NCBI GenBank assembly: GCA_963799485.1
Contig: CAWCXJ010000007.1
Span: 320,001 to 384,000 of the forward strand
DNA length: 64,000 nucleotides
Source of the DNA: an uncultured Trueperaceae bacterium
GTDB taxonomy: Bacteria > Deinococcota > Deinococci > Deinococcales > Trueperaceae
Direction of reading: 5' to 3'
Numbering within the stretch: the first letter of the stretch is position 1; each line of letters opens with the position of its first letter. A program made the position numbers and the translations under genes. Positions 1 through 1,484 of the stretch are shown piece by piece. A model generated the notes under the pieces. It was not told where the DNA came from. It did no database searches and worked only from the letters and a program-made list of their open reading frames with translations.

Positions 1-164
1 TCAAGAACGATGCGGCTCGGCTGTAGATGCCTCAGCAGCTTGACCAACTCGCCGATACCGTCTGGCGTGTTGGCGTGTGAAAGGCGTTCACCGCTTGGTA
101 TGATCGCGATATCGAGACGGTACTTGGCGACGTCTACGCCAGCCACCAACACTTCGTTAAGCAT
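1..164 (-). CDS. IS110-family transposase/recombinase, N-terminal part (runs off the window edge)
   Basis: Manual translation MLNEVLVAGVDVAKYRLDIAIIPSG...LQPSRIVLE shows the GxDVAK and IVLE motifs of the RuvC-like DEDD domain; RBS GGAGGT upstream of the ATG at 164. Confidence 0.9.
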   Translation of the reverse strand, partial: MLNEVLVAGVDVAKYRLDIAIIPSGERLSHANTPDGIGELVKLLRHLQPSRIVL

Positions 165-184
165 GTCACCTCCGTGAGACGCTC

Positions 185-335
185 CAGCGTAGCCCAACCT
201 TGCAGATGCGAGCTTATTGCTCGGGTAACTGTTCGGGCTTAGGCTGAAGACAACAGCACGACGAGACTAGCTTTTTTACGGTCTTTAGAACCTAAGGGGC
301 GACGCTCTGCCGTGCCGTGTCCCATCCTCAACATA
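185..335 (-). ncRNA. Putative IS110 bridge RNA (target-binding and donor-binding loops)
   Basis: Two stem/internal-loop/hairpin modules; guide GTCGCCCCT (295-303) matches flank GTAGCCCCT (338-346) at 8/9; ends approximate. Confidence 0.75.
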
Positions 336-339
336 CAAG

Positions 340-523
340 GGGCTACCCCTGAACTCATCAGCTTGAGTATTCAAGAAGTTCGCCGCCTACTCGCTCGGCT
401 TATCTGGCACCACTCCCTTGATCCACCCCGAGTCCTTGTCTGGTCTTGCCGGCGTCGGCGTCGTCAAGCCAGAGCTAAAGCCGCTCACTTCAAACGAAGA
501 GGGTACTATCTGCGGCTGTAGTA
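340..523 (+). pseudogene. IS701-family transposase C-terminal remnant and element end
   Basis: LISLSIQEVRRLLARLIW...WSCRRRRRQARAKAAHFKRR and the terminal CTGCGGCTGTAGTA resemble IS701-type 3' ends; interrupted at the IS110 boundary. Confidence 0.7.
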
Positions 524-551
524 AAAAACTTGTAACACCGGAAAGACGAAG

Positions 552-587
552 AAAAAGGCGGACAGCTATTTAGCGTGTTCGCCTTTT
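552..587 (-). terminator. Intrinsic terminator downstream of tRNA-Leu
   Basis: AAAAGGCGGACA...TGTTCGCCTTTT stem followed by a U-tract on the minus strand. Confidence 0.7.
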
Positions 588-590
588 CGG

Positions 591-677
591 TGGTGCCGAG
601 AATGGGACTTGAACCCACACCCTCTTGCGAGGACTAGCTCCTGAAGCTAGCGCGTCTACCGATTCCGCCATCTCGGC
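591..677 (-). tRNA. tRNA-Leu(CAG)
   Basis: GCCGAGA acceptor stem, anticodon arm CTAGC-TTCAGGA-GCTAG, long variable arm, GTTCAAG T-loop, encoded CCA. Confidence 0.97.
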
Positions 678-692
678 GAGTTCAGGAAGTGC

Positions 693-721
693 AGTCTAAC
701 AAGAATATAAAGGGTTGACAA
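693..721 (-). promoter_or_regulatory. Sigma70-type promoter of tRNA-Leu
   Basis: Minus strand TTGTCA-17 bp-TAGACT. Confidence 0.65.
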
Positions 722-812
722 GACACCTATGCTCGTCCCAAAATTGGGAGCGCTCGACGAACTGACGGGTGAGCGGGTAAAGTTGACAAGACACCTATGC
801 TCGTCCCAAAAT
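714..812. repeat. Two identical 31-bp direct repeats with a 37-bp spacer
   Basis: GTTGACAAGACACCTATGCTCGTCCCAAAAT at 714-744 and 782-812. Confidence 0.95.
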
Positions 813-854
813 GTCCGACCTCAGCAGCGGCGAGGCAAATGATAGACTGTGAAG

Positions 855-1484
855 ATGACGCAGCGACAGCTCGACCGGGCGCTTTTGGCGGGTATCGGGG
901 TGATCCTCCTCGTTATCCTGGGGTTGGCACTAAGTCCTGCGCCGACCACGGCGCGAGGTGACATCAGCGACCCTGCCGTGCGTACCCCGCAGGTAGACGT
1001 GTTACCGGCCTCGCCTCCCGACGCAGCGGTGCTAGCTGACAGCAGAGAAGGGGAGTTGGAAAGTACGGATTCTGAACCGGCAGTTGTGGAGAACGATTCC
1101 GCCGCAGACACCGAAGAAGGTTCTCCGGTTGAAACCGCGCCGCCTCCTACAGATGAGCCGACCGCGCGAACTCCCTTTCAACCTGTTGCAGGCGTCCCGG
1201 TTGAGCGCGTTGGTTTTGCTTATGCGACCGGCAGCGAAGGCGCGTGCGGGGTACCGCTAACGGCCTGGAGCTATGTCGCGGTCAGCCGTGACCTCTTGGA
1301 GGCTTACCCGTGCGGCACCGCCGTTACGCTGAGCTTTGAAGATGAAATCGCCGGGCGCAGCTCGGTTACGGCGCAGGTCGGGGACACGATGGGAGCCGAT
1401 ATTACCGATACGGTCAATGTATTTGTCGGTGAAGATGAACCCGCGCTCGAGTACGGCGTCACTAGCGGCACGCTCGCACAGTAA
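855..1484 (+). CDS. Membrane-anchored protein with C-terminal 3D/double-psi-beta-barrel (lytic-transglycosylase-like) domain
   Basis: N-terminal TM helix, acidic/Pro-rich linker, VAVSRDL...PCGT...VGDTMG...VNVF pattern; probable leaderless ATG at 855 (GTG 849 alternative). Confidence 0.65.
   Translation: MTQRQLDRALLAGIGVILLVILGLALSPAPTTARGDISDPAVRTPQVDVLPASPPDAAVLADSREGELESTDSEPAVVENDSAADTEEGSPVETAPPPTDEPTARTPFQPVAGVPVERVGFAYATGSEGACGVPLTAWSYVAVSRDLLEAYPCGTAVTLSFEDEIAGRSSVTAQVGDTMGADITDTVNVFVGEDEPALEYGVTSGTLAQ

Follow-up and report, generated by a model that had tools for sequence, protein, structure and literature searches.

The first 339 positions of the stretch of DNA analysed here raise the question of whether one mobile element can be directed into the genes of others by an RNA that it encodes itself. 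The stretch (the window) is 64,000 nucleotides (nt) long, comes from an uncultured Trueperaceae bacterium (contig CAWCXJ010000007.1, here C7) and corresponds to C7:320001-384000; it begins within an insertion sequence (IS) of the IS110 family and passes directly from there into the C-terminal tail of an IS701-type transposase gene. The answer developed below is that this is probably a bridge-RNA IS110 element targeting a run of six A and four G residues (A6G4) at which other ISs recode their transposases or encode lysine-lysine-glycine (KKG).

The element and its predicted bridge RNA

Window positions 1-339 are the left end of a 1.1-kb insertion sequence that continues beyond the window's left edge. 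The N-terminal part of its transposase gene occupies 1..164 on the minus strand, taking the ATG at 164 as the predicted start (a TTG at 197 is an alternative), and the gene ends at C7:319223. The product carries the domains PF01548 (DEDD, E 4.9e-26) and PF02371 (Tnp, E 7.3e-18) and scores 223.6 bits against NF033542, 'IS110 family RNA-guided transposase' (cut-off 140); the element thus belongs to the IS110 family (IS110 group), with a DEDD + Tnp recombinase. A BLAST search with C7:318501-321000 recovered four full copies in the genome, at C7:319198-320342, C7:561830-562974, C1:22598-23742 and C6:508140-509284, all 100% identical over 1145 nt and different outside the shared block; in the longer alignments, which run 1-3 nt into the flanks, three copies are 100% and one is 99.9% identical. 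Because four identical copies stand in unrelated flanks, transposition must have been recent. A fifth locus, remnant E, retains 32 nt of the left end (C12:16649-16680). One public metagenome run yields the element as a separate 1147-nt contig, at a depth of 14.2 against 2.7 for a flank contig (five-fold), and a run from a second study holds a variant with about 35 differences and another right-end flank; the metagenome contigs examined, contigs being all that was searched, contained neither a joint across the element nor an empty site. Among 40 relatives searched, none of the five same-genus genomes has the element's DNA, and one same-family genome carries an IS110 copy about 65% identical with other guides.

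The limits of the element were set by comparison with 79 relatives fetched from genome contigs, the recombinases of which share 51-60% amino acid (aa) identity with that of the window. Insertion produced no target-site duplication, and only AAG (the CT core) is common to both junctions in the four copies; terminal inverted repeats were not noted, no formal search for them having been made. The terminal 7 nt of the left end lie at 331..337 (minus strand, TGTATGT; ACATACA on the plus strand), the core dinucleotide follows at 338..339 (AG on the plus strand, CT on the minus strand) and the target flank begins at 340. The assignment of CT as the core rests on the relatives, since the left end begins CT-TGTAT(C/G) in all 79; CT is found at both junctions here and also after the right end in relatives, and a CT core has been described for IS621 (PMC11208160).

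Between the gene and the left terminus, the minus strand of 190-325 is predicted to fold as two stem-loops with one internal loop in each. As a single-sequence prediction this fold is weak (z = -1.4, with 22 of 200 shuffles folding equally well). The consensus structure of 31 sequences, the element and 30 relatives, contains 26 pairs, of which 12 have compensatory changes on both sides, and in the alignment the variable internal-loop strands are bordered by the near-invariant anchors CAG-ACCG ... GGTC ... GACCG ... AGC. The stem-loop at 247..323 (minus strand), whose outer stem (columns 18-31 with 71-83) keeps pairing despite double changes, would bind the target, and that at 190..240 (minus strand), drawn from the fold and the same consensus, would bind the donor. 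In the description of IS621 given in PMC11208160, left guides equal the top strand, right guides are complementary to it and all guides include the core. Read in this way, the two strands of the first internal loop hold a left target guide GUCGCCCCU at 295..303 (7 nt plus core CU, plus-strand reading AGGGGCGAC), which coincides with the variable 9-mer position of the alignment, and a right target guide UAAAAAAG at 271..278 (6 nt plus core AG, plus-strand reading CTTTTTTA), both encoded on the minus strand. Together they specify GTCGCCC-CT-TTTTTA, which is TAAAAAAGGGGCGAC on the plus strand. The donor loop agrees with the ends of the element itself, which read ...ACAGTTG-CT and CT-TGTATG: in the left donor guide ACAGUU(ACC), at about 224-232 on the minus strand, ACAGUU repeats the last bases of the right end (...ACAGTTG-CT), and in the right donor guide (G)CAAG, at about 199-203 on the same strand, CAAG is complementary to CT+TG at the left end.

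Guides and flanks covary across the relatives. Over 42 distinct pairs, an average of 5.38 of the 9 positions of the left-guide 9-mer agree with the relative's own left flank, as against 4.17 for permuted pairs (maximum 4.76 in 2000 permutations), and since the register search missed some one-base offsets this signal is understated. On the right side, a CT candidate follows the right end in 33 of 46 rows (seven others have only non-CT candidates and six have none), and 25 of the 33 match the guide complement at 5-6 of 6 positions, a count flattered by taking the best of up to four candidates in each row. By structure and by guides alike, the left end can be read as encoding a bridge RNA, which would be expressed from the strand that carries the transposase gene. 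Within window 1-1000, Rfam recognised no family at threshold for the bridge-RNA region. A weak match to the Xanthomonas small RNA sX15 lies at 173-331 on the plus strand, antisense to the bridge RNA (26.4 bits against a gathering threshold of 55, E 0.042), and sX15 itself may be the antisense of an IS110 left end. An exact 28-nt left-end pattern had no match in the metagenome contigs, and a degenerate target-loop pattern matched, among 364 genomes of a sample of the phylum, the element's own genome only.

Insertion sites and what the guides specify

In window orientation the junctions of all four copies have the form flank|AAAAAAG-CAACTG...ACATAC-AAGGGG|flank, and the DNA beyond them is unrelated. 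Because the overlap between the junctions (AAG/AG) is the core, the site before insertion was A6G4, and a crossover placed anywhere within the AAG overlap still gives A6G4 when the flanks are joined; the run is present in all five junction sets. At the site that adjoins the window, site A, the sequence before insertion was CACT-AAAAAAGGGG-CTACC. The right guide matches there at 8 of 8 positions (CT-TTTTTA at 6 of 6, C7:319197-319204), the left guide at 8 of 9 against the flank GTAGCCCCT, and the left-target half of the site, GGGCTAC at 340..346 on the plus strand, at 6 of 7. Reconstructed as TAAAAAAGGGGCTAC, site A agrees with the guide-specified 15-mer at 14 of 15 positions, the best in the 3.66-Mb genome, which holds no other match at 14 of 15 and two at 13 of 15. 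The original prediction, made from the window's letters, that the joined target guides would spell out the pre-insertion site is thereby borne out.

The gene interrupted at site A is of IS701 type, and the element lies between the end of its DDE part and its tail. The tail runs from 339 to 521 on the plus strand (stop codon at 519-521) as a basic reading frame of 60 aa beginning GGG GCT ACC, and, as had been proposed, it starts exactly at the IS110 boundary: it aligns to residues 410-464 of the 468-aa IS701 transposase of locus L060 (42% identity, E 6e-7 for the pair), a full-length member (393.5 bits to NF033540, the IS701 family) in which the tail is fused in frame and the A/G run is lacking. 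Neither the tail open reading frame (ORF) nor the left-flank ORFs matched a Pfam or NCBIfam family, the tail falling beyond the part of the protein that NF033540 covers. A six-frame hidden Markov model search of the genome matched C7:319100-319186 (plus strand), to the left of the element, to positions 335-363 of the 363 of NF033540 (E 5.1e-7, a fragment below the cut-off). That flank reads ...WTGWYRHITLSLPAHAFLAALRAQA-L-K-K with codons CTA AAA AAG, so that the zero frame across the restored site is CTA AAA AAG GGG, with the heptamer A_AAA_AAG in phase and the tail at -1; the sequence named by the guides, TAAAAAAGGGGCGAC, encodes a KKG slippery run. The 5' part of the gene was expected beyond the element's other end, and it is there, reduced to a truncated remnant of about 100 nt.

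Site C gives a second case in a different family. The element separates two parts of an IS5-family gene, matching NF033580 positions 4-108 (DUF4096) and 100-258 (DDE_Tnp_1), and the frames of copy C itself and of six relatives with A5G6 or A4G7 need a -1 shift at the run; the left arm matches at 4 of 7. The copy C junction is of the kind known from the IS427 group of IS5, for which PMC3281130 describes a conserved ORF1/ORF2 frameshift motif.

A second lineage came from the metagenome contigs, where the degenerate target-loop pattern found 14 matches, seven in IS110 bridge RNAs and seven by chance in unrelated DNA. Three of the loci (L157, L159 and L165) represent one element, about 56% identical at the aa level to that of the window, with left guide ACAGCCCCU and the same right guide. 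L157 sits at CGA AAA AAG|GGG of an IS630-type gene (NF033545 positions 1-129 upstream, E 2.3e-18, and 216-249 downstream, E 2.6e-6) with the downstream ORF in the -1 frame, and in L165 an IS5/IS427-type gene is interrupted where DUF4096 meets DDE_Tnp_1 (NF033580 positions 25-110 and 115-242), again with a -1 shift. As the target run is common to several IS families, the element lands mostly inside other ISs and splits their transposase genes. It is plausible that such insertions disable the victim at low cost. None of the genome's 11 unoccupied A6G4 10-mers is in a transposase ORF, as against four of the five occupied sites in or beside one. Sitting in another IS is not the rule in the subfamily, since a transposase domain other than that of IS110 (mutator, rve, IS66) lies within about 350 nt in only three of 45 relatives with other guides; five of the 45 have another IS110 in the flank, and this baseline comes from Pfam searches of 150 of their 265 flank ORFs. 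At L077, from a Dehalococcoidia metagenome-assembled genome, a relative separates the N-terminal half of a DUF6226 gene from the C-terminal half, and at L094 one lies between two GNAT acetyltransferase ORFs, which points to quite different natural targets within the same subfamily.

A number of results weigh against a guide aimed at the recoding sites of other ISs. Copy B is intergenic, in the hairpin GAGCCCCC-TTTTTTGATA-GGGGGGCTC after ribH. Copy D has the last 52 positions of NF033580 (an IS5 tail) as its left-end flank, at an internal KKGG that is not a recoding site, and unrelated DNA as its right-end flank. Remnant E abuts an ORF with no Pfam family and no BLASTP similarity to the IS630-type ORF of L157; its IS630 label depends on a weak match of an upstream ORF fragment (HTH_33, E 1.4e-7; NF033545 positions 76-115, E 2.8e-4), and its position is compatible with the IS630 frameshift region. 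The distal left guide is matched (6 of 7) by site A only, the scores at B, C, D and E being 4, 4, 3 and 3 of 7, so that most insertions used little beyond the 10-11 nt A6G4 core. Eleven perfect A6G4 10-mers stand unoccupied in the genome, where 4.1 are expected from base composition. The IS701 copy at site A was already a stump before insertion, or became one later, and the five same-genus genomes that lack the element do carry IS701 copies with A6G4. In the metagenomes, the flanks of L159 and of three further elements with the same right guide (L154, L163 and L155/L164) gave no IS assignment. Only one of the five insertion sites lies in IS701. The original prediction made IS701 the target and named a majority of insertions elsewhere as grounds for giving it up; with four of five outside IS701 and no multi-copy IS701 in the genome, that part has to be abandoned, as does the idea of a multi-copy IS701 target. 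The more general proposal, of a guide aimed at another mobile element's recoding site, still stands once it is widened from IS701 alone to the A6G4 recoding or KKG motif that several IS families share.

The strongest alternative, still an unlikely one, is that survivorship rather than aim produced this distribution. The guide would then name a short A6G4 with no evolved relation to ISs; insertions in host genes would be purged, and, A6G4 being rare in a genome of 59% G+C except where ISs keep it for recoding or KKG, copies would be left in dead or selfish DNA. The mismatched distal positions at four of five sites and the placing of copies B and D fit this explanation, and, on a reading of the ORF maps, about eight of the 11 unoccupied 10-mers are within ordinary ORFs, where insertion would be costly to the host. 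The 11 fall in or between tsaD/tsaE, fdhD and genes for an APP1-type phosphatase, a sulfotransferase, a SPOR protein, an ABC transporter, an M20 peptidase, a glycosyltransferase, tatA/ferritin-like and an acyltransferase; the closest IS fragment to any of them ends 224 nt away. Insertion by IS621 at partial matches has also been reported (preprint 10.64898/2026.08.31.748434). On the other side, the genome's best 15-mer match is the IS701 site and is occupied, about three of the empty 10-mers are intergenic and yet unused, and two IS frameshift sites are likewise occupied by the second lineage, whose distal guide differs. These last observations favour a real preference, and the mismatched distal arm together with the 11 empty 10-mers favours a loose 10-11-nt requirement plus a survival filter; the two explanations are compatible and not mutually exclusive.

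Some further observations concern these loci. A candidate origin of copy D's right-end flank, exchange between two IS110 copies, was rejected, no partner flank having been found. A second IS701-type tail, in opposite orientation, lies at C7:318905-319114 (minus strand) with its own run CTAAAAAGGGGCGAT, an unoccupied A5 run whose G-side bases are closer to the left guide than those of site A. Within about 5-15 nt of CTAAAAAGGGGCGAT this tail meets the IS701 piece, truncated at its 5' end, in which site A lies, and the junction of the two inverted pieces (about C7:319097-319114) was considered as a possible trace of recombination mediated by IS110 at a second A5G4 run. A paralogous left-end fragment, 76% identical, lies at C6:714982-715140 within locus L005 (C6:714982-715216 + C6:716919-716984), with the same right guide and a left guide AAGACCCC that fits its flank; the flank is homologous to that of copy B and is interrupted by an IS1182-type element (DDE_Tnp_1_6, DUF772). 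Repeats of the form ...ACG(C/T)T(A/G)AAAAAGGGG(G)C... at C1:1304, C2:69804, C7:253987, C6:749926 and C7:481874 look like further IS recoding sites with A5G4-5.

Probable recoding in the IS701-type gene

The IS701-type tail occurs in 17 of the 364 phylum-sample genomes, its own included. Twenty of the 27 loci outside its own genome were examined, L053 (no upstream DNA) and six repeat copies (L063, L066, L067, L070, L072 and L073) being left out. At 15 of the 20 the DDE frame (WxGWYRH...AHAFL) is exactly +1 of the tail frame and the switch falls at an A4-7G4-7 run; L047 needs the opposite (+1) shift and has a stop within the DDE part, L060 has no run and is fused in frame, and with three loci uninformative the -1 arrangement is shared by 15 of 17 informative loci. 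Because the same arrangement recurs at the A/G run in this way, the run is taken to be a real recoding site, with the qualification that the 15 loci represent about eight sequence lineages, not 15 independent events. Each -1 locus offers A_AAA or A_AAG in the zero frame, tetramers of a class named in PMC4066793, and the full A_AAA_AAG is found at site A and four others. Intact IS701 copies of same-genus genomes have AAAAAAGGGGC at the position of site A, which is the check that had been proposed on intact copies. Among them L056, in three identical copies, has an intact ORF of 393 aa (NF033540, 423.7 bits), which ends two codons beyond KKG (GAG AAA AAA GGG GCT CAG TAG). On motif and conserved arrangement, the IS701 run thus has what would be expected of a programmed -1 recoding site, as the original prediction had supposed for the A-run. 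A tblastn search of plasmids with the tail gave no match, and a protein search found no longer fused forms of it at E <= 0.001, which is weak evidence.

The alternative, that the frame break reflects the decay of pseudogenes and not programmed recoding, is improbable. In its favour, the IS701 copies of the element's own genome are broken, with three internal stops in the C13 copy and three A5 fragments that need a different shift; literature searches on IS701 frameshifting found no published description of programmed frameshifting or other recoding in the family, and a review places IS701 among the single-ORF elements in one species (PMC8944449). Decay does not readily account for the same -1 relation at the same run across several genera, nor for the otherwise intact ORF of L056. 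Moreover, the -1 frame is closed by a stop just before the run in L046, L048 and L056, and the zero frame stops soon after it in L050 and L056, an arrangement that suggests an overlap window between the frames. The phase of the run differs among lineages, and transcriptional slippage, which is described for A runs of IS elements (PMC1088944), is therefore a possible route to the fusion as well. The findings point to a conserved -1 step near the C-terminus in an IS701 clade, and this would be a new example of recoding for the family.

That the A and G runs are the IS110 element's own termini, the flank similarity being coincidental and no target being specified by RNA, is very improbable: the runs are common to all copies, so copy comparison alone cannot set the boundary, but uninterrupted relatives of the interrupted genes keep the run unbroken at the same codon positions (A4-7G4-7 in IS701-type genes of other genomes, A5G6 or A4G7 in seven IS5-family copies), which marks it as target DNA, and in the IS110 relatives the left end begins CT-TGTAT while the preceding bases change together with the guide.

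Mechanism, parallels and neighbouring sequence

The favoured explanation, that guides direct this IS110 element to the recoding or KKG run of other ISs, can be put as a sequence of steps. Comparative evidence for a bridge-RNA mechanism of the IS110 kind is strong. By analogy with IS621, the element would excise as a circle. As the sequence reads, the circle junction would place TTGACA of the right end 17 nt from TATGTT of the left end, a candidate promoter that would exist in the circle only. The donor loop of the bridge RNA would pair with the joined ends (ACAGTTG-CT-TG), and recombination at the CT core, presumably catalysed by the DEDD + Tnp protein, would insert the element without target duplication. 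The target guides would direct insertion to TAAAAAAGGGGCGAC, the KKG slippery run where the IS701-type reading frame may drop by one to add its tail, and to like runs that are homologous only within each IS family, at the ORF1/ORF2 frameshift site of IS5/IS427 and the frameshift site of the IS630-type element at L157.

How such guides arose is a further matter. The four lineages with right guide UAAAAAAG are scattered on a quick recombinase tree, and forcing them into one clade costs 43.9 log-likelihood units (approximately unbiased (AU) test, p 0.016); the trees are quick trees only, and the tested group was named after the tree had been seen. It is possible, and we hold it only tentatively, that several IS110 lineages independently gained guides (right UAAAAAAG, left ending CCCCU) aimed at A6G4 and are hyperparasites of other ISs, with an evolved preference for them. 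Were this so, the landing pad would be stable, multi-copy and host-neutral, and the victims could not easily mutate the motif, as IS701-type, IS5/IS427 and IS630 elements must keep the run to express their transposases. It would also be a concrete case of mobile-element conflict decided by a 15-nt RNA guide.

The natural targets of IS621 are repetitive extragenic palindromic (REP) sequences, whereas that of the window element is a slippery run inside other transposase genes. Another member of the IS110 superfamily likewise lands on a conserved sequence of another mobile element; its target is the DNA end bound by the victim's transposase, in contrast to a coding recoding motif of unrelated IS families. 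ISPpu10 of Pseudomonas putida, also an IS110 element, is reported with all insertions in copies of one conserved repeat (preprint 10.64898/2026.03.19.712850), which is an intergenic host repeat and not another IS. The element otherwise resembles the bridge recombinases of the IS621/IS110 group, as PMC11208160 describes them, in its DEDD + Tnp recombinase, in a left-end RNA with target and donor loops, in a left guide that reads as the top strand and a right guide complementary to it, in the CT core of all guides, in 7-nt left arms and in the lack of target duplication. It differs in its size of about 1.1 kb, in a recombinase whose nearest relatives found share at most about 60% identity with it, and in a right target guide of 6 nt plus core where IS621 has 4 bp (PMC11208160). 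On the side of the victims, -1 frameshifting at A_AAA_AAG in IS3/IS1 and the IS427 group (PMC3281130, PMC4066793) likewise joins overlapping frames at a lysine run, with only the fusion complete; in the IS701-type genes, unlike these, the frame changes late, past the DDE domain and close to the C-terminus, which gains a basic tail of about 60 aa, and the run is followed by G4-7 and varies in phase between lineages.

Bridge recombinases are under development as programmable genome-writing tools, and their natural guide targets are poorly charted. A natural guide that reads a translational recoding signal would link RNA-guided recombination with programmed frameshifting. For annotation, gene callers will split such transposases, and IS annotation will miss such nested elements.

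Beyond the tail the window holds two features of a different kind. A gene for tRNA-Leu (anticodon CAG) lies at 591-677 on the minus strand, about 70 nt past the end of the tail (ARAGORN; Rfam 58.6 bits), so that the IS701 remnant adjoins a tRNA gene. Further on, a perfect 31-nt direct repeat containing TTGACA occurs at 714-744 and 782-812 on the plus strand, 68 nt apart and upstream of an ORF at 849-1484.

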